A DNA stretch of 64,000 nucleotides from a virus. Taxonomy: Duplodnaviria; Heunggongvirae; Uroviricota; Caudoviricetes. A program made the position numbers and the translations under genes. This document shows positions 30,842 through 57,126 of this stretch, one piece after another. Below the pieces are notes generated by a model that ran no database searches, was not told the origin of the DNA, and was given only the letters and a program-made list of their open reading frames with translations. Each line of letters opens with the position of its first letter. Position 1 is the first letter of the stretch. The stretch is from the IMG/VR virus record IMGVR_UViG_3300025858_001097. The stretch is one strand, 5' to 3'.

Positions 30842-31432
30842 TTATCTTTGCATATCAAAGAAAATTTTATATTTAAATATTTCATCGTCAGATAGAAAAA
30901 TATCCAGATCCATTGAATTTATAATCATAACGCCGTCTTTAGCCATATCTTCGACGATGGGAGTCATTTGATCGAAAAAACGTGTTGCATCTACAATCAA
31001 AAAAGTTTTGAAAAATACAGAGCAATCTTTGGCCGTTTCTTTTACATTGAAATCTCCTGGAAGTCCAACTACATAAACTTCTTTTACATCGTTTTTATCT
31101 AAAAAATCATAAAGATTTAAACCATCTTCATTAACTCCAACAAAACCGCTCAAATCTATGGTTTTCTCACCTTTTGTGAAAATAGTAGTTTCTTTTAAAT
31201 CTAAATCTGGATGAAAATCTGCGCCTTCAGTATTTTGAATACAATGAGGAGGAATTTCATCAGTGAAAGATTTATGATTGACTGGATGCCAATCTCTTGA
31301 TGCTACAGTTAAATCAAATTTATCTTTGATTTCGTTAATTATAGGAATAATTCTATCTCCGAAAGGAACAGGATATGTTCCACCGGGCATAAAATCCTTT
31401 TGAACATCAACAATAAATAAAGCTCTTTTCAT
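30842..31432 (-). CDS. isochorismatase-family protein, PncA (nicotinamidase)-like, with the catalytic Cys position apparently substituted
   Basis: IVDVQKDF (Asp), SRDWHP...PPHC metal-binding residues and TKGE (Lys) are present. The segment aligning to the PncA GIATDHCV reads GLPGDFNV. Confidence 0.55.
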   Translation of the reverse strand: MKRALFIVDVQKDFMPGGTYPVPFGDRIIPIINEIKDKFDLTVASRDWHPVNHKSFTDEIPPHCIQNTEGADFHPDLDLKETTIFTKGEKTIDLSGFVGVNEDGLNLYDFLDKNDVKEVYVVGLPGDFNVKETAKDCSVFFKTFLIVDATRFFDQMTPIVEDMAKDGVMIINSMDLDIFLSDDEIFKYKIFFDMQR

Positions 31433-31433
31433 A

Positions 31434-31799: not shown

Positions 31800-31819
31800 T
31801 TTACAAATATATTAATTTT

Positions 31820-32800
31820 TTAATAGTTAAAAAAATTCTTTTTAACTATATCTATAGCTTTTTGTGTTCTTTCTTCCCAATCAGTTCCACTCACAACCTC
31901 CATTTTTAAATTTTTAGATTTAAAAAAGTTGTATTGGAAATCACCAAGATCATCTCTTTTTTCTTTTGAAAGGCGAGTTCCATCTTGTATATAAGGGGCA
32001 TCTTTATCTAAGAAAATGTATAAATCGAATTTGTTTGCTTCTTCAATCCAATTATCGAATACGGGTTCAAGATCGAAGAAAAATTTAGAATAAGATTTTG
32101 TTGTATTTAAATTTGTGTCGCTAAATAATATCCTATTAGCGTGTTTTATTTCTTCGATTATGCCACTAGCATGAGCTTTTCCAACATTCATGATATCTTT
32201 TATAGTTGTATTGTCTGAATGTTCGATTATATCTCTACCCCACTCTTTTACATAAGATGTTTGAAAAACTTTTGACAATTTTTCTGTAAGAACTGTTTTT
32301 CCAGTACTTTCTGTTCCACACAGACATATTTTCTTAACAAAATAAGGTCTTGCTACAAGTGATATATAATCCCAATACTTGAAAGGATTTTCTCTTATCT
32401 GAGTGCCACTTATTGGAACAGTTTCACGTTTTTCGTCAAATATTACATATCCACAATTCATATACTCAGCAACATACTCTGCGTAAGGTTCTGAAGCAAA
32501 CACAACATCTACATTATCTAAAGTTTTACTTATGTGATCAGCCCATAGTTTAGATACTTCCCTATCAGAAACAGAAGTATATGGAAGTTTTACATCGGTA
32601 TATCTTATAATAACTTTATAATCATCCCTATATTTATCCGTAAGCCAGTGAAGTCTCACGTAACCTGGTATGGTTTCTTTTTCGTCATTCATACATAAAA
32701 GAACATATAAGAGATCACATTTCTCTTTAGCAAAATTTATAAGTGCTTCGTGACCTAAAGAAATTGGTTCTGCTTTTAAAATTATCAGTCCTCTTATCAT
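31820..32800 (-). CDS. nadR: NadR-like bifunctional NMN adenylyltransferase / ribosylnicotinamide kinase (no HTH domain)
   Basis: N-terminal cytidylyltransferase-like PISLGHEAL (H/TxGH); central P-loop GTESTGKT of the RNK domain; 326 aa. Confidence 0.7.
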   Translation of the reverse strand: MIRGLIILKAEPISLGHEALINFAKEKCDLLYVLLCMNDEKETIPGYVRLHWLTDKYRDDYKVIIRYTDVKLPYTSVSDREVSKLWADHISKTLDNVDVVFASEPYAEYVAEYMNCGYVIFDEKRETVPISGTQIRENPFKYWDYISLVARPYFVKKICLCGTESTGKTVLTEKLSKVFQTSYVKEWGRDIIEHSDNTTIKDIMNVGKAHASGIIEEIKHANRILFSDTNLNTTKSYSKFFFDLEPVFDNWIEEANKFDLYIFLDKDAPYIQDGTRLSKEKRDDLGDFQYNFFKSKNLKMEVVSGTDWEERTQKAIDIVKKNFFNY

Positions 32801-33636: not shown

Positions 33637-33702
33637 AAGAACTTTTTATTCTTATATATTAAAAACTAAAAATCACTTTTAACCTTTTCATTGTGGTCAT
33701 TT

Positions 33703-34128
33703 TCATTCACTCCAATCTTCTTCACCATACGGATCCAAATCATTAATTATTCTTTTATTGAGTTTATATTCTCTTTTATGTTCTCTCTTTTTTTCTTTCC
33801 ATTCACTATAACTTCCACAATGATGATGTCTTATCATATTACATATATCTGGGAAACTTCTAACTACTTTAGTTGGCAAACTATATATATTTATATCTGA
33901 TGATGCACAATTATCTAATAGATGTAATATATAATCAATAACATAATCTTCATTTTGATCTTTATAATGTTTTAAAAATTTTATAATGTCATCGACATTC
34001 TTCCAGCTTAACTCGATTTTTTTTAAATCTAATATAGCTTGTGCGGCTTCTTCGCGTGTTAAATCTGTTCGATAACCATATTTATCGAAATCTTTAAAAT
34101 CTTCAAATTTAGATAAATTACTTATCAT
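33703..34128 (-). CDS. hypothetical protein with a C-terminal DPYGEEDW motif
   Basis: 141 aa. The motif is shared with 60039..60482 and with the disrupted ORF at 63661..63881. Confidence 0.5.
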   Translation of the reverse strand: MISNLSKFEDFKDFDKYGYRTDLTREEAAQAILDLKKIELSWKNVDDIIKFLKHYKDQNEDYVIDYILHLLDNCASSDINIYSLPTKVVRSFPDICNMIRHHHCGSYSEWKEKKREHKREYKLNKRIINDLDPYGEEDWSE

Positions 34129-34131
34129 ATG

Positions 34132-34452
34132 TCATTTAACTTTTTTAGTTTCATAAATATAACACTCATACCATCTTGAAGATACTCCATATTCACATAA
34201 TACATTTTCAAGAGATTGTTTGGGGAATTTAGTAAAAGATCCTTTTATTTCCAAGAACCAAGAATCTGGCACATATTTTTCTTTTATCCATTCTCTTGGA
34301 TCTTTTTCCCATCCATTTAATATATTATACCAACCTTCACTTTTATATTTATTTGTGAGTTCTCCAACGAGAATTTCTTCGCCATTATTATGTTTAAGAA
34401 TTATAATATCTTCAATTTCAATTTCGTCAAAACTTACTTTTTTCAATTTCAT
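34132..34452 (-). CDS. hypothetical protein (106 aa)
   Basis: ORF track. Confidence 0.5.
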   Translation of the reverse strand: MKLKKVSFDEIEIEDIIILKHNNGEEILVGELTNKYKSEGWYNILNGWEKDPREWIKEKYVPDSWFLEIKGSFTKFPKQSLENVLCEYGVSSRWYECYIYETKKVK

Positions 34453-35018
34453 TGTTGTTTTTTATATATTTTTGTCCAATTAATTAACCCGTAGACGGCT
34501 ACAAAAGTTATCACAATATATTCTAAAGATACTAAATATATTCCTTTTGAATAGAATAACCACACGCTTAACATATCCAATAATATCCATAGAAACCATC
34601 CATATAAATATTTTTTAGATAGAAATACCACAGCAAATATACTCATTGTTGTGACAATAGCATCTAGTAAAGCAAATTGTGGTTGAAAGAATCCCAATAC
34701 ATAACCTCCTAATAAACAAAGAATTAGTATAACAATTCCAGTTATTATTACATTTTTTAATGAAGATATTTTTATCTTTTTACCTATATCTCTTCCCCAA
34801 TATGTCCAACCGTATATTGAAACAATCGTAAAAAAGACTTGAAGCGCAACTTGTCCAAACAATTGATTTTTTAAAAAAAGTATAAAGAAAAATATCTGTC
34901 CGATTATACCAACAGGCCAATTCCAAATTTTGTTTCTAGCAGCCAAAACTACTGCAGCAAAAGAAAACAATGTTCCAAATAATTCTAAATAAGAAAGTGT
35001 ATATCCTAGTAATACCAT
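34449..35018 (-). CDS. pnuC: nicotinamide riboside / NMN transporter PnuC
   Basis: Multi-TM protein with a PnuC-like N-terminal region (FGTLFSFAAVVLAARNKIWNWPVGIIG...IYGWTYW). Confidence 0.75.
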   Translation of the reverse strand: MVLLGYTLSYLELFGTLFSFAAVVLAARNKIWNWPVGIIGQIFFFILFLKNQLFGQVALQVFFTIVSIYGWTYWGRDIGKKIKISSLKNVIITGIVILILCLLGGYVLGFFQPQFALLDAIVTTMSIFAVVFLSKKYLYGWFLWILLDMLSVWLFYSKGIYLVSLEYIVITFVAVYGLINWTKIYKKQQ

Positions 35019-35473
35019 TATTTATTTATCTTAATATACTTACCAATAATAGCTGATTTATCCAACACATGTCCATCAATTTCTTTCAAAAGTTCGGCTT
35101 TAGTATATCCTTCTTTGTTCAAAAAACAATCTAAAGCAAATATCTTAAAGAAATATCTATGAACACCATTTGGAGGGCATGGACCTTTATAATCAAATTG
35201 TTTATAGTCATTTTTTCCAAATAAAATTGGTGGTTGTGAATCTCCTTTTGTAAAGTGTTCATTAAACATAGTTGTAGTTGGTGGAATATTATATACAATC
35301 CAATGTACCCAATCTCCAACTGGAGCGTCGGGATCATCAACTAATAAAGCTAGACTAACAGTCGCTTTTGGAAAACCACTCCATTCTAGCTGAGGTGATA
35401 CATTTACTCCCTCGCAAGTAAATTTGGAAGGAATAAATTCACCATGTCTAAACGCGTTACTTCTTATTTCCAT
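35018..35473 (-). CDS. YbhB/YbcL-family phosphatidylethanolamine-binding (PEBP) protein
   Basis: LVDDPDAPVGDWVHW signature. Confidence 0.8.
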   Translation of the reverse strand: MEIRSNAFRHGEFIPSKFTCEGVNVSPQLEWSGFPKATVSLALLVDDPDAPVGDWVHWIVYNIPPTTTMFNEHFTKGDSQPPILFGKNDYKQFDYKGPCPPNGVHRYFFKIFALDCFLNKEGYTKAELLKEIDGHVLDKSAIIGKYIKINK

Positions 35474-37541
35474 CTTTTTCTTTTAACATTATTTTTAATT
35501 GAGCAAAACAATTAAATGGTACTCCTACAAAATAAAGTGGTTGATCTCCACTCCAATTTAATTGACCGCTCGCGAAATATTTTTGATTTGTTATATTATT
35601 AAAATAGATATTAAAATCTATCCAGTTCCAACTAACACCCAATTTTCCATTTAAAGTGTAATAAGAATCAATAGTTTCGGCTAAATCCGTCCCCAACCAT
35701 TTTGTATATCCGATGATACTTCCATCTTGATATCTACAAGATAAACCTACTACAAACCATTTATATTTATAATGACCTTCTATGTTACCTATCCATTTTG
35801 GAGATAATATTGGTTTATTTATTTGATTATTAGATTGTTTTATACCACAATCATTATACGAACCATTTACACCAATTCCTAAACCAAAATCCCATTTGTA
35901 TTTGAAATCTGCTTCAATTCCTCTTCTATAACTCTGTTTTACGTTATCGTGTAATGGAACTCCACTCATACCTATTTTACCATTTAAAACAATTTCATTA
36001 CTAAAATTCATATGGAAAAAATTGAAATTTATATAAAAATTTTTTTCTACTACACGAATACCAAGTTCATTATCTCGCGATTGTTCGGAATTAAGATTGT
36101 TATAAACAGCGTTACCAAGAGTATCACATGGTAAGTAGTTATACCCATTTAATACATCATTTCTTGATGGTTCACGATTATTTACACCATAACTATAATA
36201 AAACACAGTTCTATTTAAATTGTAATCTATTCCTAAATCATAATTTATAAAATTCCAATGTAAATCTGGCATAACAACATTATAATGAGGAGTAAAGTTC
36301 TCATCATAAGAAACATCGCCTTTATATTTAAAATCTGTATATCTATATTGAACATCGCCAAAAAGATTCAGATCTTTCCAAACATTATATTTAACTTTCA
36401 AATAACTACTTATTTCATTTCTATATCCAGTGTTTGTGTATTGATATCCATAAATATCATTATTCCCTATATGTTCTCTATCATATGTAAAACCGTGAGT
36501 TCCTAAATCGAAATAAAATCCTTTTATATTTTTTGAAAAATTTAAATATCCACCATACCAATTAGATTTAAAAGTATATTTGTCTATACCATAATTAATA
36601 TTATTCTGTAAGAAATTCTGTAAATCAAAAGTATAATAGCCGTGAAGATAATTATAATAAAGAGCATAATTCAATTTCGTTTCTTTATTGAAATTTATTA
36701 TGTGGTGAAATTGAACGTGTGTCTGAGCAAAATTATCTTGTTCTTTGTCTGTCGCACCGTTTGTTTTCCTATCTTCTCGAACTTTTTCCAACGGAACGCC
36801 CAACCACGCTAACTGATTATTTTGGGCTCCTATAAAAGATACTATTTTGAATGTATGTTTTTTTACATTAAAATATGAATTTAAAAATAAACTCTGTCCT
36901 TTATTACTGGAATGATATTTATATCCTTTTGTTTCTATATCTGATAATTGAAAGTAATAACCGCCACGTTTAAAATTTTGATCGACCTCTGCTCCAATAT
37001 TAAAACTATTGAAAGATCCGTATCCAAATTTAGCCGTCGCTTTATCATAAGTAGGGAAATGGGAATCAAAATTTAAACCACCTCCAAAACAAGATGATCC
37101 ATTTTTTGTTAAACTATTACCTCTTTGTATTTGAATCAAATCTAATGAATTAAAGAAATCTGGATAGTTTGAAAAATACAATCCTTGATCTTCGGGCTCA
37201 TTCATTGGCACTCCGTTTAGAGTGAAATTAATACGAGTTTGATCAATTCCTCTCATACGAATATAAGAATATCCATAGGGGCTACCAGCATCAGAATAAG
37301 ATGTGATAGAGGGTGTTGTAATAAGAATATCAGAAGGCTCTTGCCCGTGATATTTAAAATTTATTTCGTTCTTATTTAAATTTGTAAAAGTAATAGGAGT
37401 AAGATGATTCGCCTTGTATGGCGCTGTAATATTAACCTCTTTTAATTCTATCGTGTCCTTACCAATATGATAAATAGTGTCTTGACTATAACCCCCGATA
37501 GCGAAGATAAATAGAATAATAATAAATAATGTTCTTTTCAT
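35457..37541 (-). CDS. TonB-dependent outer-membrane receptor
   Basis: Signal peptide ending GGYSQD; plug-domain motifs (IQIQRGN..., RGIDQTRINFTLNGVPMN); long beta-barrel region; 694 aa. Confidence 0.7.
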   Translation of the reverse strand: MKRTLFIIILFIFAIGGYSQDTIYHIGKDTIELKEVNITAPYKANHLTPITFTNLNKNEINFKYHGQEPSDILITTPSITSYSDAGSPYGYSYIRMRGIDQTRINFTLNGVPMNEPEDQGLYFSNYPDFFNSLDLIQIQRGNSLTKNGSSCFGGGLNFDSHFPTYDKATAKFGYGSFNSFNIGAEVDQNFKRGGYYFQLSDIETKGYKYHSSNKGQSLFLNSYFNVKKHTFKIVSFIGAQNNQLAWLGVPLEKVREDRKTNGATDKEQDNFAQTHVQFHHIINFNKETKLNYALYYNYLHGYYTFDLQNFLQNNINYGIDKYTFKSNWYGGYLNFSKNIKGFYFDLGTHGFTYDREHIGNNDIYGYQYTNTGYRNEISSYLKVKYNVWKDLNLFGDVQYRYTDFKYKGDVSYDENFTPHYNVVMPDLHWNFINYDLGIDYNLNRTVFYYSYGVNNREPSRNDVLNGYNYLPCDTLGNAVYNNLNSEQSRDNELGIRVVEKNFYINFNFFHMNFSNEIVLNGKIGMSGVPLHDNVKQSYRRGIEADFKYKWDFGLGIGVNGSYNDCGIKQSNNQINKPILSPKWIGNIEGHYKYKWFVVGLSCRYQDGSIIGYTKWLGTDLAETIDSYYTLNGKLGVSWNWIDFNIYFNNITNQKYFASGQLNWSGDQPLYFVGVPFNCFAQLKIMLKEKDGNKK

Positions 37542-38056
37542 TTGTGATATTTTTCGTTAAATTTAAAACTCCATTCTGGATTTGGCCTGTATTTAGTGTT
37601 TAGAAAATATTTATATACATATTTCCAATCCTTTTTTGGATTAAATCCAGCCTTGTCTTCCCAAAGAGAATTGAAATATGGTTTTTTGTCATAAAATCCA
37701 AAACTTCCTTTAGCGTCAGAAATTTCTGGATTATCATTCACGTACTTAAAATATATACCATCTTCTTCGAATTGTTTCATATACTTTTCAATCTCGTTTT
37801 TATAAGAAGATGTGAATATAAACAATATCATATCACGGCGGTTCTTTGTAAGATATTGTAAAGTTTCTTTGGCATAAGGATAGTAATTTATTCTAAATTC
37901 ACCTTCACCTTTTTCAGATTTACGATAATCTGGCTCGGATATAACTCCATGAATATCAAAGCAATGATAGGTTTCATACCACTGCCTTTCTTTGGCGTGT
38001 TTAAACATTTTATCCATCCAAACAAGTAAAGATGGTTTATAGCAAGGATTTAGCAT
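37538..38056 (-). CDS. hypothetical protein, weakly HAD / 5'(3')-nucleotidase-like
   Basis: CFDIHGVI resembles HAD motif I (DxDGV) but with His at the second Asp position. Confidence 0.35.
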   Translation of the reverse strand: MLNPCYKPSLLVWMDKMFKHAKERQWYETYHCFDIHGVISEPDYRKSEKGEGEFRINYYPYAKETLQYLTKNRRDMILFIFTSSYKNEIEKYMKQFEEDGIYFKYVNDNPEISDAKGSFGFYDKKPYFNSLWEDKAGFNPKKDWKYVYKYFLNTKYRPNPEWSFKFNEKYHK

Positions 38057-38193
38057 ATAAATATTTTTTTATATAACTTTTTTATTTTTAAGCCATATAA
38101 TTCGAACAAAATTAAATATTTTTTTATTAATAAAAAAATTTTGTAACCGATAAGAAAAATTAGCGTCTAATCTAGAAAATAAAAACATAAAAT

Positions 38194-38487
38194 ATGAACA
38201 GATTGTATAGAGCATCTAAAGATCGCATTTTCGGTGGAGTTTGCGGAGGAATTGGGAAGTATTTCGATATTGATCCAGTTATTATAAGACTTATTTGGCT
38301 ATTGTTTGCCCTTTGTGCTGGCTTTGCTATTTTCATTTATATTATAGCATGGATAATAATTCCAAATGAACCTTTGGAAATAAAACCAGAAAAACCTATT
38401 AAAGAAAAGGAAGTTAAAGAAGACCCAATAGAAGAGCAGACCTTTGAAAAGCCAAGAGCTAGAAAAAAGGGAAATAATACAAAATAA
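38194..38487 (+). CDS. PspC-domain membrane protein
   Basis: LYRASKDRIFGGVCGGIGKYFDIDPVIIRL followed by a TM helix is the classic PspC domain. Confidence 0.7.
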   Translation: MNRLYRASKDRIFGGVCGGIGKYFDIDPVIIRLIWLLFALCAGFAIFIYIIAWIIIPNEPLEIKPEKPIKEKEVKEDPIEEQTFEKPRARKKGNNTK

Positions 38488-39970: not shown

Positions 39971-41467
39971 TTAGAATTTCATGTCACCGACATCAACTCT
40001 TATGTCTTTTTCTCCTTTATTCTTAAATGAAATTTTAATGATCAGTTTGTCTGGTCGAATTCCAATAATTTTTCCTTCACCAAAAATGGGGTGGAAAATT
40101 ACTAATCCTTCTTTCAAATCTTTTTCTGTGAGTTTCCTACTACCACCGGATTCAGATTTTTTCTTAAAATCGTACTTTGAGAATTTATCTGGTGGAAGAA
40201 TGAATTTGCTATTCATAGTGGTTGTTATAATCACTTTTGGATGAGGTCCTTCATTATCCACTTCTGTTATTGTTCCAAAAAGTTCACCTGTTTTACTATA
40301 AATTTCCATATCCTTTTTGGCTTCATCGAAAGTAACAGGACTCATTCCCTTACTATCAACAACTTCTTCTCTCTTAACTTTCGTAGGATCAAAATCTGGT
40401 GTTGTGTAGAATCCTACGTAATCAACCCAAATAGCGTCTTTCTTTAGACACCATTGTTTGTCGTGTTCGCACCATTGAGCATCGGCCACCTTAACGGTAT
40501 TTCCGAGATAGTCTTTGACCTCTGTTTGACCCGGTGCTAATTGTCCTGGTCCTGTTGTTGTAGATCTTGCGGATGTAGTTTGTCCGTAACCTCCGCCTTC
40601 CCACCAACGATCATCACGTTCCCAATCTGAATAATATTTACCACGACGTGAGTAAGAATATTGATGCTCAACTTTAGTTGGATCTCTTTTCACTGGAAGA
40701 GTTTCCCAATCTACTTTACAACAAGCTTCTGCTAACTTTTCCAAAAAAACTATATTTTGTTTTTCGCGAACTGAGTGTTGATCATCATAACCAACACTAA
40801 GATTTGTACACTCGGGGAATTTTTCAGCAACTTGATGTGAATCTGTTACAGCTCCTGTTGGATCTTGTTTATATTTAAATCCACCAGCTTCATTTAACCT
40901 TTTAGCTAATTCATCTGCAAATTCAGCCGAACAACATCTTTCACCCATTTGGAAAGTAATAACACTATCATAATCTCTACGGTCTAATGAAATTACTTTA
41001 TTTATTTTTTTATATAATTCGTCATCTTTATTGCTACCCAAATATGTATTTAGAGCTCTAGATCCAACGCAACCATGTTCTTCACCATGAAAGAAATAAT
41101 AAAGACCTTGAATACCTTTCCCTATCATATATATCATAATAGTAGCGCCAGCTTTATCGTCCGCACCAAGTAGGGTTTTTCCGTCTGTTTCGATGTAATC
41201 TCCTTTGATGACATGCTTAACTTCTTTTGGTTGTCCGCTGTCTGCTGTATCCATATGGCAAGCAAACATAACGGTAGGATCTCCAATTTTGAAATAATAA
41301 TTTCCATTGGCATCCTTTTTCCACCCGCTAGGCAAATAAGGTTCTATCAACTTTTCGTTGCCTCCTGGCATTGTGGTACTTGTTAATTTTAAAAATAGGT
41401 CTTTGATTGTGGACATTTTATTTATGCTTATTTTTTTATCTTCTTTATTTTCAACAAAATCTTTCAT
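39971..41467 (-). CDS. M20-like (peptidase T-like) zinc metallopeptidase / amidohydrolase, paralogue 1, with a C-terminal extension
   Basis: FACHMDTA (HxD), LGADDKAG and HGEEHG (EE) motifs of M20/M28 dizinc hydrolases; about 50% identity with 45585..46733 over the catalytic region. Confidence 0.55.
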   Translation of the reverse strand: MKDFVENKEDKKISINKMSTIKDLFLKLTSTTMPGGNEKLIEPYLPSGWKKDANGNYYFKIGDPTVMFACHMDTADSGQPKEVKHVIKGDYIETDGKTLLGADDKAGATIMIYMIGKGIQGLYYFFHGEEHGCVGSRALNTYLGSNKDDELYKKINKVISLDRRDYDSVITFQMGERCCSAEFADELAKRLNEAGGFKYKQDPTGAVTDSHQVAEKFPECTNLSVGYDDQHSVREKQNIVFLEKLAEACCKVDWETLPVKRDPTKVEHQYSYSRRGKYYSDWERDDRWWEGGGYGQTTSARSTTTGPGQLAPGQTEVKDYLGNTVKVADAQWCEHDKQWCLKKDAIWVDYVGFYTTPDFDPTKVKREEVVDSKGMSPVTFDEAKKDMEIYSKTGELFGTITEVDNEGPHPKVIITTTMNSKFILPPDKFSKYDFKKKSESGGSRKLTEKDLKEGLVIFHPIFGEGKIIGIRPDKLIIKISFKNKGEKDIRVDVGDMKF

Positions 41468-45584: not shown

Positions 45585-46733
45585 ATGGACATTAGAGCGA
45601 AGTTTTTAGAATTGACATCAAAAACATATCCTATGGGGAAAGAAAAGGAAGTATATAAATTTTTACCAGACGATTTTATTAAGGACCCATTTGATAATTT
45701 ATATTGGATAATAGGACATCCAGACACTTTATTCTGTGCTCATCTTGATACTGTCGGCGAGTCATCTGAAGTTGTACATGTTTTTGATGGAAATGTGGTC
45801 AAAACAAATGGGAAAACCGTTCTTGGAGCAGATGATAAAGCGGGAGTTGTTATTATGCTAAATATGATAGAAAAAAACATCCCTGGTTTTTATTTATTCA
45901 CTGTGGGCGAAGAAAAGGGGTGTCAAGGTTCGGCTAAATTATCTCAAAAATTACAGACAAAAGGAGACGATAAATTCAAAGGTATCAAAAAAATAATAGC
46001 CTTCGATAGAAGTGGATATAGTAGTATTATTACACACCAAATGGAACAAAGATGTTGTAGTGATGAATTTGCAAATGCCTTAATTAGAGAATTTGGAAAA
46101 GTAGGTCTCCAATACACATTAGACACGGGTGGTGTATATTGTGATTCTGCTGAGTTTGCGGATCTAATTCCCGAATGCACTAATATTTCTGTTGGTTATT
46201 TCGATCAACACAACGTAGTGGAAAAACAAGACATGGCTTTTTTGGAAAGGTTATCAGATGCTTGTTGTAAAGTAGATTGGAAATCATTACCAGTAAAAAG
46301 AGATCCTAAAAAAGTAGAATATATTGATAGTTATTATACTAGTAGAAAGAAAAGAACTATTGTAGGTGAAGATGAATCCGAATTTGATGATTATGATTTT
46401 CATCCAATGGCAGTTGAAGATAATAAAGATGTGGAAGTTTTCTATTTCGAAGATAAAAGATATAATTATATATCTGATATATCTTATCTAAATGGTGAAA
46501 TTGTAGATATTACTTTAAGTCAAAAACGCATTGAGCATGAATTAGAGGCAATAACAAAATATATAGAAGATAGTGGAATAATATATGATTTCGCTGTTTG
46601 GGATGGACTCATTTTGGTCGTCGAACACGACAAACACGAAACAAAAATATCAAGAAACGATCTCATCAAATACGTACCAATTCTCGATATAGAATTTATC
46701 AAGAAAGAGGTAAGACCAATTAGAAAATTTTAA
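45585..46733 (+). CDS. M20-like (peptidase T-like) zinc metallopeptidase / amidohydrolase, paralogue 2
   Basis: CAHLDTV, LGADDKAG and VGEEKG motifs; no TATATA box upstream, unlike most genes. Confidence 0.55.
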   Translation: MDIRAKFLELTSKTYPMGKEKEVYKFLPDDFIKDPFDNLYWIIGHPDTLFCAHLDTVGESSEVVHVFDGNVVKTNGKTVLGADDKAGVVIMLNMIEKNIPGFYLFTVGEEKGCQGSAKLSQKLQTKGDDKFKGIKKIIAFDRSGYSSIITHQMEQRCCSDEFANALIREFGKVGLQYTLDTGGVYCDSAEFADLIPECTNISVGYFDQHNVVEKQDMAFLERLSDACCKVDWKSLPVKRDPKKVEYIDSYYTSRKKRTIVGEDESEFDDYDFHPMAVEDNKDVEVFYFEDKRYNYISDISYLNGEIVDITLSQKRIEHELEAITKYIEDSGIIYDFAVWDGLILVVEHDKHETKISRNDLIKYVPILDIEFIKKEVRPIRKF

Positions 46734-47252: not shown

Positions 47253-47921
47253 TTAATTCATATTTAATTCTTTTAACAGATTGTCTATGTTATACTGAGC
47301 TTCTTCTAAAAGTTTGACCTCCGGTATAATGATATTATTACCAACTTTTCTTACGCTATCAAATAAGATTTTTTCCTGATTGGTATAAATGGAAGCTGAC
47401 GCTGTATATAAAACAGCTGATATTTCAGGATTAGATTTTTCTACTTGACTGGCTAAAAAATTTAACTTCTCAATCAACTTGTCCTTCTTCATATTTATCT
47501 GCTTTTTAGTGTTGCAATTATAACAAAGAGTTTGATAATTATCAATATTATTTTCTCCGCCCTTACTTTTTGGTTTTACATGATCTTTTGTGAGCATTAC
47601 TTCATCTCCGTTCTCATTGTATCCATATAAATTAAAGTGCCATTTGTAATTTTCTTTTACTTCGTTGGCGTGTCTTTCCAAAGCGAAGAATTTTCCTTCT
47701 AGACCACATTCAACGCAGGATACACCACTTTTTTTAAATGTTTGATATCTGTGAGATGCCAAACTAACTAAATTACCCAAATATTCTTTTACTGTTTTGG
47801 GCACTCTTTCTTTTCCTTTTTGATTTCCTTTTTTAATCACAATAGGATCTGGAACAAAATCCAAAACTTCATTTATGGAAAAAGTTCCAATTCTTATATA
47901 CCGGTTGTTTTTATTTTTCAT
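47253..47921 (-). CDS. HNH endonuclease
   Basis: HVKPKSKGGENNIDNYQTLCYNCN matches the HNH motif. Confidence 0.65.
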   Translation of the reverse strand: MKNKNNRYIRIGTFSINEVLDFVPDPIVIKKGNQKGKERVPKTVKEYLGNLVSLASHRYQTFKKSGVSCVECGLEGKFFALERHANEVKENYKWHFNLYGYNENGDEVMLTKDHVKPKSKGGENNIDNYQTLCYNCNTKKQINMKKDKLIEKLNFLASQVEKSNPEISAVLYTASASIYTNQEKILFDSVRKVGNNIIIPEVKLLEEAQYNIDNLLKELNMN

Positions 47922-50146: not shown

Positions 50147-50497
50147 TTATTCTAATTTTCCTTTATTATACCATTTAACTATCGTTTTTTCTTCTTCAAC
50201 TTGTTTGTATCCCATTCTTCGCTTAAAATCCTCATGCCATATTTCACAATATTCATCAAGAGTTACTTCTTTTCCTCTATAATACCATTTAGTATTAATA
50301 AGATCATTATTATCAAGATCTTTATAATATTCTTCTAATTTTTTCAATCTACTCAAATCTTTTACAAAAACTTTACGCCATTGGGGATCGCTTACAATAA
50401 CCGCAGATCCTGGTCCTTTTGATGTTACAACTCCAGGAAAAGATATGGTTACTCCTTTATAAAATACTTTATCTCCTATTTCAAAATTACTTTTCAT
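50147..50497 (-). CDS. hypothetical protein (116 aa)
   Basis: ORF track. Confidence 0.5.
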   Translation of the reverse strand: MKSNFEIGDKVFYKGVTISFPGVVTSKGPGSAVIVSDPQWRKVFVKDLSRLKKLEEYYKDLDNNDLINTKWYYRGKEVTLDEYCEIWHEDFKRRMGYKQVEEEKTIVKWYNKGKLE

Positions 50498-51347
50498 TAA
50501 TTAATTGATGTTTGTAAGTTAATAACATATCTTCCTTTTCTTTTGGAAGAACTGGATAAGCTAAATCCAATGCTTTCATTCTTTCAATCAAAATCTTAGA
50601 AACCAAAAGACGAGACAGTTTCTTTTTGTCAGCTGGAATAACATACCAGGGACTCTTTTCAGTTGAAGTATTGTTGATCATATCTTCATATGCTTCCATA
50701 TAATCATTCCAATAACAACGCTCTTTTAAATCCGCTTCTGAAAATTTCCAATTTTTAGCTTCATCTTCAATTCTTTCAAGAAGACGATTCTTCTGCTCTT
50801 CTTTTGAAATATTTAAAAATATTTTAACTACTTCAATTCCATTACGATTTAAATGTTTTTCAAAGTTACGAATATCATCATAACGCTCTTCCCAAACTTT
50901 ATCTGTGATAAGATCTGATGGTATCTTCTGTTTAGTTAATAAATTGTGAACTTTTACCACTAAAACCTCTTCATAATAAGAGCGATTGAATATTGCAATA
51001 TTTCCTTTATTTGGAGCAAAAACTTGAGCCTTCCAAAGCCATGTGTGATCAAGTTGCTCGGGCCCGGGTTGTTTAAAACTCATAACTTGTGTAGCTTGCG
51101 GATTCAATCCGCTCATAACATGCTTTATGATTCCATCTTTACCGCACGTATCCATCCCCTGAATTATCATCAGCATACCATATTTATCTTGTGCATAAAG
51201 CATGTCCTGCATAAGAGCAAGTTCTTTAATATGATCTACAAGATTTTGCTCAATATCTTCTTTGCTAAGATCAGATTTAATGGAAGTATCAAAATTTTTA
51301 ATTTTGAATTTATCTCTACCGTCAACAGTGTAATCTTTGATTTTCAT
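50487..51347 (-). CDS. ppk2: polyphosphate kinase 2 (PPK2) family
   Basis: Walker A GMDTCGKDG, followed by FNRSYYE-type motifs. Confidence 0.8.
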   Translation of the reverse strand: MKIKDYTVDGRDKFKIKNFDTSIKSDLSKEDIEQNLVDHIKELALMQDMLYAQDKYGMLMIIQGMDTCGKDGIIKHVMSGLNPQATQVMSFKQPGPEQLDHTWLWKAQVFAPNKGNIAIFNRSYYEEVLVVKVHNLLTKQKIPSDLITDKVWEERYDDIRNFEKHLNRNGIEVVKIFLNISKEEQKNRLLERIEDEAKNWKFSEADLKERCYWNDYMEAYEDMINNTSTEKSPWYVIPADKKKLSRLLVSKILIERMKALDLAYPVLPKEKEDMLLTYKHQLINEK

Positions 51348-51349
51348 TA

Positions 51350-52291
51350 TTATTTGTTGTTAATGAATAACTTACTCAATGATTTATGATTTACTATGTT
51401 GCGAATAGCTCTTGATAAAAGAGTTGATGCAGAAACCACCGTAATCTTACTGCTATTCTCTTTTAACGGAACGGTATCTGTTACAACTAGCTCGGTTAAA
51501 GCTGATTTATTTACGTTATCATAAGCGTCTCCACTTAAAATAGGATGAGTAACAACCGCTCTTACGCTGTTTGCTCCTCTTTCCATCATCAATTTGGCTG
51601 ATCTACAGAGAGTTCCACCTGTATCTATAATATCATCAACAATCACAACATCCTTGCCTTTGACATCACCTATGAGAATCATTTCATCTATTTTATTTTC
51701 TTTTGGTCTGTGTTTGTAACAAAGAACCATTTCGCATCCAAGACTTTCTGATAAATATTTTGCCTTTTTTGTTCCACCAGTATCAGGAGCTGCTACTACA
51801 AGATTTTGAAGACCCAATTCTTTTAGATAAGGAACAAACATATAAGAAGCTAGGAGCATATCTACAGGAATGTTGAAGAATCCACCAATTTGATCGGCGT
51901 GAAGGTCAATAGTAACGATTCTAGTCGCGCCGGCGGTTTCTAAAAAGTTGGCAACTAATTTAGCTCCAATGCCGCATCTTGGTTTATCTTTTCTATCCTG
52001 TCTTCCATAACCGAAGTATGGAACAACAGCAATGATTCTTGCAGCGGACGCTTTCTTTGCAGCATCAATCATCTGGAACAACTCCCAATAATTATCAATA
52101 GGAGCATATCCCGACTGAATGATGAACACTGAACGTCCTCTAATATTTTCTTTGAAAACTGGTTGGAATTCGCCGTCAGAAAACTTTGTAAGTTCTACCT
52201 GACCCAATCCCATTTTAAGATTTTTGGCTACATTTTCAGCAAGCGCTTTACTAGCTGAGCCAGCGAAGATCTTTACTTCACTTTTATCCAT
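51350..52291 (-). CDS. prs: ribose-phosphate pyrophosphokinase (PRPP synthetase) homologue
   Basis: DLHADQIGGFF and VVIVDDIIDTGGTL PRPP-binding loop; 313 aa. Confidence 0.85.
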   Translation of the reverse strand: MDKSEVKIFAGSASKALAENVAKNLKMGLGQVELTKFSDGEFQPVFKENIRGRSVFIIQSGYAPIDNYWELFQMIDAAKKASAARIIAVVPYFGYGRQDRKDKPRCGIGAKLVANFLETAGATRIVTIDLHADQIGGFFNIPVDMLLASYMFVPYLKELGLQNLVVAAPDTGGTKKAKYLSESLGCEMVLCYKHRPKENKIDEMILIGDVKGKDVVIVDDIIDTGGTLCRSAKLMMERGANSVRAVVTHPILSGDAYDNVNKSALTELVVTDTVPLKENSSKITVVSASTLLSRAIRNIVNHKSLSKLFINNK

Positions 52292-52394
52292 AATGAGTTT
52301 TTTTGAGTTATATTAAAAAAACGTATTCTTGTTTTCTTTTACAAAATTAAAAAATATTTCATTAAATAAAAAATTTAATTAAGCTTATATTATT

Positions 52395-52410
52395 TTAATA
52401 TATAAATAGA
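52395..52410 (+). promoter_or_regulatory. promoter-like box upstream of 52426..53574
   Basis: ttaatatataaataga. Confidence 0.4.
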
Positions 52411-52425
52411 AACAACATTTCATCA

Positions 52426-54224: not shown

Positions 54225-54974
54225 TTATATGTCCATTTTATGAAATTCCGTTTTCACACCTAAACAATCGCAAAAAGTCAATTTGGTTAAATCATGAAAA
54301 TCGTATGTTTTTATTTCAGGTACAGGGTTGTGACCTATTAGCTGATGATAACCAGGTAAAGGCTTTGTATAGATTTCTTGTTTACCAGCCCAAAGTGGTC
54401 CTCCAACTTTATCATGTCCTCCGCGTAAATGACCTACCATAAAAATAGGATCATAATTAAATTCAAACATCAAATTTAAAATATCAGCGATGTTCTTACA
54501 ATCATCTAAATATGGAGTAAAACGATTGTTAGTTTTTCTGTCTAAAACAGGTTGAACAAAATATTGCCACCAACCACGATGAATTCCAGCGTGAGTCCAG
54601 ATATTATATCCTTCTTGATAAGCTAACTGAAATAAATTACGATTTTCACGAAATAATTCATTTAAGTCGTGATACATCTCGGGGCGAAATCCGCTAATAT
54701 TTTCATTTCTTACATAAGCTATTTCATGATTTCCCCACAGCAAAACAACATTATCTGGATAATCTTTTTTTAATTGAATGATTTCCAATAAATTATCTAA
54801 AATTTGATCGTTTGTTCTCTCATAAGCATCAACATAATCACCCAAGAAAACAACTTTATCTATAGCCATTCCTAGACGGCAATACATGATTTCATCAGTA
54901 TCTTCATTGATACGATAAACCGCGTTTTTCCATCTATCGCGACCATGAACGTCACCTATTGTAACAATTCGCAT
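54225..54974 (-). CDS. calcineurin-like metallophosphoesterase (Ser/Thr phosphatase-like)
   Basis: GDVHG, GDYVD and GNHE motifs. Confidence 0.75.
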   Translation of the reverse strand: MRIVTIGDVHGRDRWKNAVYRINEDTDEIMYCRLGMAIDKVVFLGDYVDAYERTNDQILDNLLEIIQLKKDYPDNVVLLWGNHEIAYVRNENISGFRPEMYHDLNELFRENRNLFQLAYQEGYNIWTHAGIHRGWWQYFVQPVLDRKTNNRFTPYLDDCKNIADILNLMFEFNYDPIFMVGHLRGGHDKVGGPLWAGKQEIYTKPLPGYHQLIGHNPVPEIKTYDFHDLTKLTFCDCLGVKTEFHKMDI

Positions 54975-55023: not shown

Positions 55024-56079
55024 TTATTCTTGTTTTATTTCCACTTCTTTAGATTCAGCTTTAGTTTTTTCTTCGTCTTCTCTTTCTGTAACATATTTTC
55101 TGGGGCATTCTGCATGATAGGTATTATTCCATTGATAATTTCTATAAGGCTGTGGTAATCTTGTATAGTTGTCTGTTAATAAATTATGCTCGAAATTAAC
55201 ATACATCGAATCAAACGGACAATAATTCAGGAATCTGGTTTCTAATGATATTAAGAGGGTAGAGTAGTTTGGAGCGGTTGATTTTTCAATAGCGTTATAT
55301 TTATTTCTTAAATATTCTCTTATCATAATATCATATTTTCCCCCCACTCCATAAGCATTACCCCACACTGTATGAACTTCGCCCTTTTTCCAATCTCCAA
55401 CGGTTTCTACTTGTGGACCTTGTTGGAACGATCTACGTGCTACTATAACATCATTATCCCAAACAACAGCGACTCCACAATTATCTGGATTTTTTGTATA
55501 AATGTGAAATTGTGCTAAAGTTGGTTCTGGATAATTTCCAAACGCATTCTCGGCTTGTTTGAAATTAGCACAACTATAACCAAAATTTTTTATAAGTTCG
55601 TTGTTGTAATTGTAACCTCTGAGAAGTTCTTCGCCTCTATATTCTACAACTCGAGCGGATTTGTTTTTTATTTCAATGTTCCATTTATTTATAAAAGACT
55701 CTAAATCAACTGGTTTAATATAACTGTTTAAATAAGCTTCATTATACACTTCACGTAAAACTTTTGTTGATTTCATTTTAACTCTGCGCGGTGATGTCCA
55801 TAAATTTCCTTCGCTGAAAAAACGCGGTTTAATAAAAGAGATATTTCCTTCAGCGTCAACATCAAAATAATCTGGAGGTTCTTTTGTTGAATATTTTCTT
55901 TCAATACCTTCTTTTAATCTCAAATAAAATTCAGCCACTTTATATTCGTTTTTCATTGGCATTAAAATTTTCAAAAGTTTATTGGATATTTGAAAGAATA
56001 TCTTTTCATCTGGATCTTTTGGAGGAAGATCAGATTGAATTTGCTCATTAAGAAAATCTAAATAGTGTTTTATTATCAT
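55024..56079 (-). CDS. paralogous family member E (divergent)
   Basis: FGYSCANF, KNPDNCGV, ARR..QQG, YCPFD blocks; aligns with 56098 and more distantly with members A-D. Confidence 0.55.
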   Translation of the reverse strand: MIIKHYLDFLNEQIQSDLPPKDPDEKIFFQISNKLLKILMPMKNEYKVAEFYLRLKEGIERKYSTKEPPDYFDVDAEGNISFIKPRFFSEGNLWTSPRRVKMKSTKVLREVYNEAYLNSYIKPVDLESFINKWNIEIKNKSARVVEYRGEELLRGYNYNNELIKNFGYSCANFKQAENAFGNYPEPTLAQFHIYTKNPDNCGVAVVWDNDVIVARRSFQQGPQVETVGDWKKGEVHTVWGNAYGVGGKYDIMIREYLRNKYNAIEKSTAPNYSTLLISLETRFLNYCPFDSMYVNFEHNLLTDNYTRLPQPYRNYQWNNTYHAECPRKYVTEREDEEKTKAESKEVEIKQE

Positions 56080-56097: not shown

Positions 56098-57126
56098 TTA
56101 CCCCATACTTAATCCTCTTGTAAAATAATATGGATCTCTTTCAAAATTTAAATCTGGTTCTGGTTTTGGTTCGTTTAGATGTTTTTCTTCTTCTATTCTT
56201 TTTTTAACAAGTTTTGTAGGACAACTTGCTCCATAAGCTCTTGTCCATTTATGATTTCCTCCTCCACCATCGGATAATAAATTATCTTCAAAACACACTT
56301 CCATTCCATCGAAAGGAGGGTATGTAAGAAATCTGGTTTCAAATTTAATAATAAAAGATCCATCTTTTGTATGCATTCCATTGGCGTTGTATTCTTCCCT
56401 TAAATAATCTCTTATCATAACGTCATACACACCACCACATCCATAATGATTTCCATAAACAGTATAATATTGTCCTTTTTTATAATATCCTCTATTTTCA
56501 ACTTGAATTCCTTGTTGATAAGTTCTTCTTCCCATTATTTTTCCTTTATCGACAACTACCACAACTCCACAATTATCTGGATTTTTAACATAAACATCAT
56601 AAATATTGGTGTTTCTACCTTTATACCAATTAGCGCAAGAAAGACCGAAATTAGAAGATAACTCTCCTGTTACACCATAAGCTCTAAGAACATCTTCACC
56701 TCTTAGATCTTCTATGTGAGGTTTGTTATCTTCTTTTCTGTGTAATATCGACCACTTATTTACAAAAGCTTCGATATCAGTTTGCTTTATCTGACTATTT
56801 ATATAAGACTCGTTGTATATGTCGCGTAATATTTTTGAAGCTTTAGATTTTTGTCTTCTTTGTGAAGAAAATTCATTTCCTTTAAATTCTTCAAAATATC
56901 TAGATTTTAAAAAACTTATATTTCCTTCTGTGTCAACATCTAAAAAATCAACTGGATCTGTCACCAAATATTTCCTATCTACTCCTTCTTTCAAGCTAAT
57001 AAGAAGCATGGCTACTTTATATTCATCCATCATTTTTGTGAGATCTTTCACTAAATTTTGAGATAAATTAAAGACTCTTCTATCTTCAACTTGCTCATTT
57101 ATAAATCTATCAAATCTAGTTATCAT
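56098..57126 (-). CDS. paralogous family member F (divergent)
   Basis: FGLSCANW, KNPDNCGV, GRR..QQG, YPPFD. Confidence 0.55.
   Translation of the reverse strand: MITRFDRFINEQVEDRRVFNLSQNLVKDLTKMMDEYKVAMLLISLKEGVDRKYLVTDPVDFLDVDTEGNISFLKSRYFEEFKGNEFSSQRRQKSKASKILRDIYNESYINSQIKQTDIEAFVNKWSILHRKEDNKPHIEDLRGEDVLRAYGVTGELSSNFGLSCANWYKGRNTNIYDVYVKNPDNCGVVVVVDKGKIMGRRTYQQGIQVENRGYYKKGQYYTVYGNHYGCGGVYDVMIRDYLREEYNANGMHTKDGSFIIKFETRFLTYPPFDGMEVCFEDNLLSDGGGGNHKWTRAYGASCPTKLVKKRIEEEKHLNEPKPEPDLNFERDPYYFTRGLSMG

Follow-up and report, generated by a model that had tools for sequence, protein, structure and literature searches.

A prs–ppk2 gene pair in a Mahaphage-type huge phage of Bacteroidota and a possible polyphosphate-driven route to PRPP

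Introduction

Several phage systems for rebuilding NAD+ have been described, and one of them, NARP1, relies on a member of the Prs superfamily. In NARP1 phages (e.g., Bas63, SpbetaL1, and PVP-SE1), the ADP-ribose diphosphokinase Adps provides ADPR-PP, from which its partner Namat rebuilds NAD+. The loss of the C-terminal alpha11-alpha12 module has been called the "defining evolutionary signature" of Adps; its N-terminal segment is also lost or remodelled, and its PP loop, of the DDICDxxx[S/T]F type, binds the ATP donor (PMC13586617). A Namat gene is found nearby (within ~10 genes) for 97% of Adps genes. NARP2 combines NAMPT with NMNAT, and NARP3 (Bas30_87/86) combines a PnuC transporter with a bifunctional NadR-like enzyme for the salvage of nicotinamide riboside, which requires no PRPP.

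Phage genes annotated as "ribose-phosphate pyrophosphokinase" are now often taken to encode NARP1 Adps. Prs and Adps can nevertheless be told apart by four features, namely, the clade, the C-terminal module, the PP-loop sequence, and the presence of a nearby Namat. A second enzyme family relevant here is PPK2, the classes of which differ in a signature residue located after Walker B (Glu in class III, Asn in class I, and Gly in class II; PMC8776046). Polyphosphate as an energy source for phages has hardly been considered so far, but in an engineered NAD+ salvage cascade that includes Prs, the regeneration of ATP from AMP by a polyphosphate kinase was required (PMC6482498).

Here we analyzed 64 kb of DNA (hereafter the window) from a Mahaphage-type huge phage infecting Bacteroidota, in which a Prs homolog is encoded next to a PPK2.

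Results

The original prediction placed adjacent PPK2 and Prs homologs at 50487-52291, and it was borne out: two ORFs on the same strand occupy exactly these coordinates, and their family profiles match. The first gene of the pair, prs (51350..52291, minus strand, 313 aa), is predicted from profiles, structures, and motifs to encode a canonical class I ribose-phosphate diphosphokinase (PRPP synthetase). In Pfam, the protein scores 148.8 bits for Pribosyltran_N (PF13793), 89.9 bits for Pribosyl_synth (PF14572), and 64.4 bits for Pribosyltran (PF00156), and in NCBIfam 404 bits for PRK01259 (cut-off 297) and 348 bits for TIGR01251 (cut-off 113). The two-domain layout of Prs, with Pribosyltran_N followed by a PRT-type C-terminal domain, is complete and above the curated cut-offs. 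The best-scoring solved structures are bona fide Prs enzymes (3dah, 293 bits; E. coli 4s2u/7xmu, ~281 bits), and the Prs motifs are all kept: FSDGE37, RQDR97, DLHA129, PDTGG169, K193-H-R195-P-K of the flexible loop, in which the role of the Lys is known from B. subtilis K197, DDIIDTGGT219, and SLSKLF304. The protein is 58-64% identical to Bacteroidota Prs (mean 62.6%) and 48.5% identical to E. coli Prs. Its residues ~270-313, including SLSKLF304, align with the alpha11-alpha12 regulatory and filament module of the E. coli and Bacteroidota enzymes, and the phage Prs is probably still under allosteric regulation.

It had also been suggested that this homolog could be an Adps of the NARP1 type. 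The two families belong to the same superfamily, the window protein and the PVP-SE1 Adps share weak local similarity over residues 90-253 (35%, E 1e-6), and the window also contains an NAD-related island. However, the phylogeny of Prs and Adps separates the two families with 200/200 bootstrap support and places the window protein on the Prs side, where it groups with Bacteroidota Prs (196/200). It scores 521 bits on an HMM of cellular Prs versus 109 bits on an Adps HMM, on which E. coli Prs itself gets 132 bits, and its mean identity to Adps is 24.1%. The alpha11-alpha12 module, missing from all sampled Adps sequences, is kept, as is the N-terminal segment that Adps has lost or remodelled, and the PP loop is the canonical DDIIDTGGT instead of the Adps consensus DDI.DGG.TF. 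A Namat partner was not found either. No NAPRTase/NAMPT-family match occurs among the ORFs scanned (30.8-63.5 kb of the window) or within 10 genes of prs, and tblastn with the PVP-SE1 Namat gave no match in the 64-kb window or in LR756501, a complete, syntenic relative of 735 kb. Clear clustering with housekeeping Prs and the lack of a NAMPT homolog had been named beforehand as grounds for refuting this suggestion. As the protein falls in the Prs clade and keeps the C-terminal module and a canonical PP loop, and as no Namat was detected in the window or LR756501, the sequence evidence refutes an Adps of the NARP1 type, and we consider it extremely improbable.

Searches for parts of other NAD+ pathways gave similar results: neither the window nor LR756501 yielded a NAMPT (NadV) of the NARP2 kind or, by regular expression, a Nudix box typical of an ADPR pyrophosphatase. 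A conserved metallophosphoesterase encoded two genes upstream of prs (54225-54974) was considered as an ADP-ribose pyrophosphatase and left unassigned, as it shows just weak PP1-like and generic metallophosphoesterase similarity. The "phage phosphatase" extension of NARP1 concerns Macro-domain proteins and is not relevant to the window.

The second gene, ppk2 (50487..51347, minus strand, 286 aa), encodes a single-domain protein that scores 219.3 bits for Pfam PPK2 (PF03976) and 359 bits for TIGR03709 (cut-off 247). Its best solved structures are all of class III (ChPPK2 6an9/6au0, 260 bits; MrPPK2 5lc9, 209 bits; DrPPK2 6aqe, 208 bits), whereas class I structures score just ~90 bits. It is 46% identical over 276 aa to ChPPK2 of C. 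hutchinsonii, an enzyme that phosphorylates AMP as well as ADP. The Walker A motif with its Lys (GMDTCGK70DG) and the lid Arg are intact, and the class III signature is present as Glu126, with IFNRSYYE126 aligning with IFNRSHYE137 of ChPPK2. The window enzyme is accordingly predicted to be a class III polyP:AMP/ADP phosphotransferase, a member of the class that turns AMP into ADP and then ATP with polyphosphate. The combination of a class III PPK2, which accepts AMP, with a canonical Prs supports polyphosphate-driven synthesis of PRPP, and the idea that PPK2 could re-phosphorylate the AMP released by Prs from polyphosphate is upheld as a prediction for both enzymes.

The gene layout points to joint expression. 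Just 2 nt separate the TAA stop of prs from the ATG of ppk2, and the 3′ end of ppk2 overlaps the next ORF on the same strand by 11 nt. Given these tight junctions and the absence of any terminator-like site between prs and ppk2, their co-transcription is very likely. The overlapping 116-aa ORF (50147..50497, minus strand) is probably on the same transcript; it has no assigned family, with no match in Pfam or PHROG and no LR756501 ORF at E <= 1e-8. Upstream of prs lies an AT-rich divergent intergenic region of 134 bp (52292..52425, minus strand), which contains a Bacteroidota-type -7 box, TAATTTTG, at 52349-52342. A scan with TANNTTTG gave 119 matches versus 92 +/- 8 expected, and we regard the -7 box as a candidate prs promoter. 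A single weak sigma-70-like match (52426-52397) was discarded as promoter evidence, such matches being fewer than in shuffled sequence. At the ends of the window, we observed a Band_7 protein that is not on record (right end), and extension at the left end yielded just a Dam-type methyltransferase.

The region had no megablast match among phage records, and homologs came from protein-level searches. For both proteins the nearest cellular homologs are from Bacteroidota (58-61% identity for Prs and 55-58% for PPK2), which indicates that both genes are host-derived. In Flavobacterium, ppk2 does not adjoin prs, and the pairing thus arose in the phage. Very few phages encode PPK2: it occurs in 16 of 50,697 phage records and lacks a PHROG family. 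Both genes are under strong purifying selection, with dN/dS values of 0.05 (Prs) and 0.08 (PPK2) between the window and its relative L052.

These comparisons bear on whether the two genes work together at all. It is possible, if rather unlikely, that they are independent auxiliary genes that happen to be neighbors in an accessory-gene hot spot, with no specific coupling between the two enzymes: Prs would provide PRPP for nucleotide synthesis, and PPK2 would provide purine NTPs and dNTPs from host polyphosphate for a very large genome. Each gene does occur without the other in relatives. Prs is found without PPK2 in one syntenic relative (L011), and a 597-kb contig (L010) encodes a PPK2 that is 61% identical and has no Prs gene closer than 10 kb, so a coupling of the two is not obligatory. 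Insertions between prs and ppk2 vary among relatives (e.g., a GIY-YIG homing endonuclease), and so does the region downstream of PPK2, which holds an ADP-ribosylglycohydrolase, an ion channel, an adenylosuccinate lyase, or an HNH gene; the adenylosuccinate lyase, an enzyme of the purine pathway, is within the same block as prs-ppk2 in L052. Class III PPK2s also accept GMP/GDP and dAMP/dADP in addition to AMP and ADP (PMC8776046), in line with a general role in nucleotide supply. On the other hand, the order of Prs then PPK2 and their adjacency are conserved in five huge-phage genomes that have diverged down to ~74% protein identity, and in the window the genes are separated by the 2 nt described above. 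The two reactions also connect directly through AMP, which Prs produces and class III PPK2 takes as a substrate. Moreover, three huge-phage lineages (LR756501/3, LR756502, and LR745206) have the rare PPK2 and a canonical Prs in one genome, a co-occurrence that is confounded by large genome size; the distance between the genes is ~400 kb in LR756502 and LR745206.

The suggested link of the pair to NAD+ reconstitution is one of genomic context. In its favor, the strand that carries prs-ppk2 also has a NARP3-like PnuC-NadR island at a distance of 13-20 kb, and relatives encode PncB, which consumes PRPP; against it, PncB and NadE are absent from the window. Both members of the NARP3 pair are present: a PnuC nicotinamide-riboside transporter (34449..35018, minus strand; PF04973, 152.9 bits, full profile) and a NadR-like protein predicted to be a bifunctional NMN adenylyltransferase and ribosylnicotinamide kinase (31820..32800, minus strand; CTP_transf_like plus AAA_28). 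The latter scores 180 bits over its full length for TIGR01526 and 162 bits for PRK08099, both under the cut-offs. Its Walker A (GTESTGKT) and ISGTQIR motifs are present, but the first nucleotidyltransferase motif deviates (LKAEPISLGH versus GKFDGMHLGH in LR756501). Three ORFs (32797-34452) separate the PnuC and NadR genes in the window, whereas the two are adjacent in LR756501. The neighboring PncA (nicotinamidase)-like protein (30842..31432, minus strand) scores 44 bits for the isochorismatase family, and its best solved structures are nicotinamidases (e.g., 1ilw, 110 bits). It carries Asn in place of the catalytic Cys, with GDFNV where the orthologs of LR756501 and L030 have GDYCV.

On the other side of PnuC, the window encodes a TonB-dependent outer-membrane receptor with a signal-peptide-like N-terminus (35457..37541, minus strand; Plug plus TonB_dep_Rec_b-barrel) that is 55% identical to its LR756501 ortholog. 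In LR756501, nadE is located between this receptor and an NIF/HAD-like gene, and pncB follows the NIF-like gene; the Pfam scores are 211 bits for NadE and 214.5 plus 96 bits for PncB. In the syntenic slot of the window (37538..38194), the NIF-like gene (37538-38056) is accompanied by nothing but an AT-rich gap of 138 bp, and tblastn with the LR756501 PncB found nothing real in the window even at E <= 10. PncB and NadE thus appear to have been lost from the window. In both LR756501 and Ga0268283_1000198, PncA-like (with its catalytic Cys kept), NadR, PnuC, NadE, and PncB genes form one island 16-25 kb from Prs-PPK2 (16 kb from PPK2 in LR756501). The frequency of PncB and NadE within the lineage has three genomes as its basis, because a metagenome scan anchored on an M28-like gene gave just one informative contig, which was already known. 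PncB is the sole recognized phage-encoded PRPP consumer, and the sole NAPRTase-family member, in the 735 kb of LR756501, and a search of the 64-kb window for phage-encoded PRPP consumers was negative; it consisted of one PROSITE motif and two tblastn queries, which divergent phosphoribosyltransferases could escape.

The composition of the island raises the question of whether the pair is the PRPP and ATP supply arm of a phage Preiss-Handler-type pathway that rebuilds NAD+ through PncA, PncB, and then NadE/NadR against a NAD+-depleting defense. The single island of LR756501 and Ga0268283_1000198 and the standing of PncB as the only PRPP consumer recognized in the former are consistent with such a role. 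The engineered equivalent also requires Prs and polyphosphate-driven regeneration of ATP from AMP, at 3 ATP per NAD+. Yet in the window, where PncB, NadE, and the PncA Cys are all missing, Prs and PPK2 are still intact and under purifying selection. Other huge phages encode Prs with no PncB match (LR756502, LR745206, LR756504, and MaAM05), and LR756500 encodes PncB without Prs. In addition, prs-ppk2 does not share an operon with the NAD island, and the ADPR pyrophosphatase search described above was negative. Taken together, we find this role unlikely.

Discussion

We propose that prs-ppk2 is a host-derived auxiliary metabolic operon for polyphosphate-driven PRPP synthesis in this Mahaphage-type phage, a reading that we regard as probable, if well short of certain. 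Prs would convert ribose-5-phosphate and ATP into PRPP and AMP, and PPK2 would use host polyphosphate to return AMP to ADP and then to ATP. In sum, the two steps would amount to ribose-5-P + polyP(n) -> PRPP + polyP(n-2), the adenylate being catalytic. If the two steps are kinetically coupled in this way, PRPP could be supplied when ATP is scarce, and the AMP and ADP that inhibit Prs would be cleared. The PRPP would then serve phosphoribosyltransferases, such as, in LR756501, the PncB of the nearby NAD+ salvage island. As PncB and NadE appear to be lost from the window, its PRPP would have to feed host enzymes, for salvage and synthesis of NAD+ and/or nucleotides.

One could also imagine a more ambitious version of the NAD+ link, in which the Mahaphage-type pair serves as supply arm to a self-sufficient pathway that runs on polyphosphate and rebuilds NAD+ through PncA, PncB, NadE, and NadR, with NadE possibly acting as an NMN synthetase. 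A phage that brings its own PRPP source and ATP regeneration would neither depend on depleted host pools nor compete for them. In the lineage of the window, the deamidated branch would then have decayed, with the supply arm retained for other purposes. We consider this scenario improbable; if true, it would add a fourth to the known kinds of NAD+ reconstitution. The comparison of relatives does catch an NAD+ salvage island in the course of gaining or losing its Preiss-Handler branch.

Another possibility, which we deem very unlikely, is that the pair counters defenses that drain PRPP or adenine nucleotides, by re-making PRPP and ATP during infection. A drain on PRPP has been suggested for PRTase toxins that bind it, ShosT among them (PMC12961424), and PPK2 is a route to ATP that is itself independent of ATP. 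However, PRPP depletion by ShosT is a hypothesis of its authors (PMC12961424), and no linkage of the pair to known anti-defense genes was detected.

Two consequences follow for phage annotation and physiology. By the four features that separate Prs from Adps, huge phages also carry genuine Prs. The pairing of Prs with a class III PPK2 further suggests that some phages tap host polyphosphate to pay for PRPP and, through it, for nucleotides or NAD+.

The locus can be compared with several described systems. With bacterial class I Prs (E. coli 4S2U/7XMU, B. pseudomallei 3DAH, and Bacteroidota), the window Prs has in common the two full-length domains, the catalytic, ribose-5-phosphate, and PP-loop motifs, and the alpha11-alpha12 region with its S-x-S-x-x-F tail. 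It differs in being borne by a huge phage, in being joined in an operon with PPK2, and in small lineage-specific changes (K-H-R for K-R-R in the flexible loop and VDM for VDN/VDH). Likewise, the window PPK2 shares a single PPK2 domain (~286 aa), Walker A, the lid Arg, and the signature Glu with the class III enzymes (ChPPK2 6AN9/6ANG, M. ruber 5LC9, and D. radiodurans 6AQE), but it is phage-encoded and adjoins prs, whereas the Flavobacterium ppk2 is away from prs.

Among phage systems, NARP1 resembles the window in that a Prs-superfamily protein is encoded by a phage whose genome also invests in NAD+ metabolism. The window protein, however, lies outside the Adps clade with its terminal segments and PP loop kept, and its neighbor is PPK2 instead of a NAMPT-like gene. 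The window resembles NARP3 in carrying PnuC and a NadR-like gene, and its relatives add PncB and NadE, as do the jumbo-phage NAD+ clusters (PMC13464706; PMC11662467). In contrast to these systems, PnuC and NadR are split in the window, the hosts are Bacteroidota, not Enterobacteriaceae, and the island also includes the TonB-dependent receptor and a PEBP-family gene, with prs-ppk2 located outside it. Finally, the pair has its logic in common with the engineered NAD+/NMN cascades (PMC6482498), in which Prs and other steps make AMP and regeneration from polyphosphate sustains the pathway. Those cascades are man-made and combine adenylate kinase with PPK, whereas the phage pair is a natural operon in which a single class III PPK2 could cover both steps.

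Results

Both genes of the predicted pair lie at exactly the coordinates first assigned to them, and their enzyme identities are close to certain. The prs gene (51350-52291, minus strand) encodes a 313-aa protein with the Prs N-terminal (148.8 bits), Prs-associated (89.9 bits), and PRT (64.4 bits) domains, which scores above the NCBIfam cut-offs for ribose-phosphate diphosphokinase (PRK01259, 404 bits for a cut-off of 297; TIGR01251, 348 for 113). The ppk2 gene (50487-51347, minus strand) encodes a 286-aa PPK2 (PF03976, 219 bits; TIGR03709, 359 bits, cut-off 247). The two genes are very likely co-transcribed, as only 2 nt separate the prs stop codon from the ppk2 start codon, no terminator-like site was found between them, the 3′ end of ppk2 runs 11 nt into the following ORF on that strand, and a Bacteroidota-type -7 box (TAATTTTG, 52349-52342) lies in the AT-rich, 134-bp divergent intergenic region upstream of prs. 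Two genes upstream of prs, a calcineurin-like metallophosphoesterase (54225-54974, minus strand) is kept in every relative examined; weighed as an ADP-ribose or nucleotide pyrophosphatase, it showed only weak PP1-type similarity and was given no assignment. In all relatives it is adjoined by two tandem paralogous genes (55024-56079 and 56098-57126, minus strand), whose products of 351 and 342 aa match nothing in Pfam, NCBIfam, or PHROG.

The original prediction allowed two functions for the Prs homolog, PRPP supply or the ADP-ribose pyrophosphokinase (Adps) of the NARP1 NAD-repair pathway. Adps proteins form a clade of their own, with the gene for the NAMPT-like Namat at most 10 genes away for 97% of them (bioRxiv 2024.02.11.579819), and have lost the C-terminal alpha11-alpha12 module; their PP loop is remodelled and their allosteric sites are degenerate (PMC13586617). 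The window Prs was compared with the Adps-Namat operon of phage PVP-SE1, 120 homologs of PVP-SE1 Adps, E. coli Prs, and cellular Bacteroidota Prs. It scored 520.6 bits on a cellular-Prs profile built without its own close clade and 109.1 bits on the Adps profile, on which even E. coli Prs scored higher (132.5 bits). In a bootstrapped neighbor-joining tree, Adps and Prs were split in 200 of 200 replicates and the window protein grouped with Bacteroidota Prs in 196 of 200; it shares on average 62.6% of its residues with Bacteroidota Prs, 48.5% with E. coli Prs, and 24.1% with Adps. All Prs-type states are present (FSDGE, DLHADQIGGFF, PDTGG, K193-H-R195, and DDIIDTGGT), as is a C-terminal extension of ~45 residues ending in SLSKLF, whereas the sampled Adps sequences carry F.GGE, D.HSDV, PDAGA.KK, and DDI.DGG.TF instead and are shorter by ~15 N-terminal and ~45 C-terminal residues. 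No NAMPT/Namat homolog was found among the ORFs or in six-frame searches of the 64-kb window, nor in the complete genome of LR756501, a 735-kb relative. As the protein clusters with Prs and no Namat was found in either sequence, the NARP1 reading is refuted by the criterion that came with the original prediction.

The best solved-structure matches of the PPK2 are class III enzymes (260 bits for C. hutchinsonii, ~208 bits for M. ruber and D. radiodurans), against ~90 bits for class I. The protein shares 46% identity with ChPPK2 across 276 residues and has Glu126 at the signature position after Walker B, where Asn denotes class I, Gly class II, and Glu class III (PMC8776046). Class III enzymes use polyphosphate to phosphorylate AMP and ADP alike (PMC8776046), which is what the PRPP-supply reading needs, since Prs releases AMP. 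The proposed recycling of Prs-made AMP thus agrees with the class assignment; the coupling itself we infer from sequence.

The window is colinear with 382-457 kb of LR756501, deposited as an "uncultured phage" and placed in the Mahaphage clade, which is predicted to infect Bacteroidetes (PMC7162821). Its Prs and PPK2 orthologs are each 73.8% identical to those of the window, and metagenome contigs as long as 93-97 kb encode an identical Prs. The nearest cellular homologs of both proteins are from Bacteroidota (Prs, 58-61%; PPK2, 55-58% identity). As ppk2 is not beside prs in Flavobacterium nackdongense, the pairing was assembled in the phage lineage. The order prs then ppk2 recurs in five diverged genomes, with a 2-nt gap in the window, two small ORFs between the genes in relative L052, one ORF in relative L053, a 475-nt gap in LR756501, and a GIY-YIG homing endonuclease (L009 9085-9756) plus small ORFs in Ga0268283_1000198 (L009). 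Purifying selection acts strongly on the two genes: between the window and L052, dN/dS is 0.05 (Prs) and 0.08 (PPK2), with dS near saturation.

The coupling can be dispensed with: one syntenic contig (161 kb) carries Prs but lacks PPK2, and another contig, of 597 kb, encodes a 61%-identical PPK2 that has no Prs within 10 kb of it. Phages seldom carry PPK2, with any match in 16 of 50,697 records and no PHROG family, and three huge-phage lineages (LR756501/3, LR756502, and LR745206) combine it with a canonical Prs, a co-occurrence that is suggestive but confounded by large genome size. LR756501 also encodes a second, distant PPK2 paralog (152753-153370, plus strand; 29.7% identical to the window PPK2), far from prs.

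Downstream of ppk2, the relatives have a variable accessory-gene hot spot, holding an ADP-ribosylglycohydrolase in LR756501 (444740-445528; L002 24560-25351) and in L053 (12454-13242), an ion channel in L053, and, in the same block, adenylosuccinate lyase (PurB) in L052 (14015-15358); none of these three is in the window. Homing endonucleases also move through the prs-ppk2 block, GIY-YIG in Ga0268283_1000198 and HNH in the window (47253-47921), the latter adjoining a DNA ligase gene and its HNH part lacking a counterpart in LR756501.

An NAD+ salvage island (30842-38056) lies 13-20 kb from prs-ppk2 on the same minus strand. It encodes a PncA-like protein (30842-31432), a NadR-like protein (31820-32800), PnuC (34449-35018), a TonB-dependent outer-membrane receptor (35457-37541), a PEBP-family protein, and a NIF/HAD-like phosphatase. 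A search of the whole LR756501 genome recovered the same island together with NadE (PF02540, 211 bits) and PncB (PF04095, 214.5 bits, N-terminal domain 96 bits; 38.6% identical to E. coli PncB), both of which Ga0268283_1000198 also has. They are missing from the syntenic slots of the window (37538-38194, versus 428536-431474 in LR756501), where the TonB receptor gene directly abuts the NIF-like gene, followed by a 138-bp AT-rich gap. The window PncA-like protein has a 19-residue deletion and Asn at the catalytic-Cys position (GDFNV, versus GDYCV in LR756501 and relative L030); orthologs in PncB-carrying genomes keep the Cys. This fits the absence of pncB and nadE, and the enzyme may be in decay or have taken on another role. 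The deamidated branch thus seems to have degenerated in the window, with prs-ppk2 still intact. The NadR-like protein has LKAEPISLGH as its first nucleotidyltransferase motif, versus GKFDGMHLGH in LR756501 (canonical G-x-F-x-x-x-H-x-G-H); its second motif (ISGTQIR) and kinase Walker A (GTESTGKT) are intact.

Elsewhere in the window, a collagen-like gene (22068-30764, minus strand; 2898 aa; 33% Gly, 26% Ser, 22% Thr), with ~750 G-X-Y triplets in an unbroken run, accounts for a ~50% GC island in a ~30% GC genome and for many spurious overlapping ORFs. Two more large ORFs (5602-9372 and 11759-15766) have shorter G-X-Y runs, and all three products are probably fiber or decoration proteins. Three peptidase-like genes (469-1587, 39971-41467, and 45585-46733) comprise one M42 and two M28-like members, the latter with weak Pfam scores. 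Thioredoxin (2099-2443) and an AMMECR1-family protein (3362-3922), both on the minus strand near the left end, are kept in LR756501.

Discussion

Prs would produce PRPP and AMP, and PPK2 would return AMP and ADP to ATP at the expense of host polyphosphate, which would uncouple PRPP synthesis from the ATP pool and relieve it of product inhibition. The PRPP so made could then feed host phosphoribosyltransferases, or PncB in relatives. Taken as a whole, this coupled module is moderately probable, with the conserved gene order and class III PPK2 in keeping with it. The main rival, that prs and ppk2 are two independent auxiliary genes sharing an accessory-gene hot spot, would suit the contigs that carry one without the other and sits less easily with the tight junction in the window; we regard it as rather unlikely.

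The potential link to NAD+ is plausible for the lineage: PncB, carried with the LR756501 island, is the sole PRPP consumer recognized in that 735-kb genome, in which Prs is the only ORF with a type I PRT signature. The link is not exclusive, because the window lacks PncB and NadE, Prs without PncB and PncB without Prs both occur in other huge phages, and PurB is present in the L052 block; for this phage it stays putative. A role dedicated to NAD+ is improbable.

Prs and PPK2 are each ordinary members of their families, and their pair is a phage auxiliary metabolic module, a kind already known. Canonical Prs is annotated in large phages such as Microcystis phage MaAM05, and jumbo-phage NAD+ clusters have been described with no mention of PRPP or polyphosphate (PMC11662467). 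Our literature searches turned up neither a phage operon of Prs and PPK2 nor any account of phages using PPK2, and the main text of the huge-phage paper (PMC7162821) mentions neither. Through PnuC and its NadR-like protein, the island resembles the recently described NARP3, with PncA-like, PEBP, TonB receptor, and NIF/HAD-like genes added. NARP3 consists of PnuC and NadR, uses nicotinamide riboside, does not need PRPP, and is reported mainly from phages of Enterobacteriaceae; the abstract and distribution section of its report mention no outer-membrane component (PMC13464706). The phage TonB-dependent receptor with the adjoining PnuC suggests that the phage provides its Bacteroidota host with a full route for nicotinamide riboside across both membranes. 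Finally, PncA, Prs, PncB, and NadE with polyphosphate-driven ATP regeneration closely mirror an engineered NAD+ salvage cascade, in which ATP regeneration from AMP was necessary (PMC6482498).
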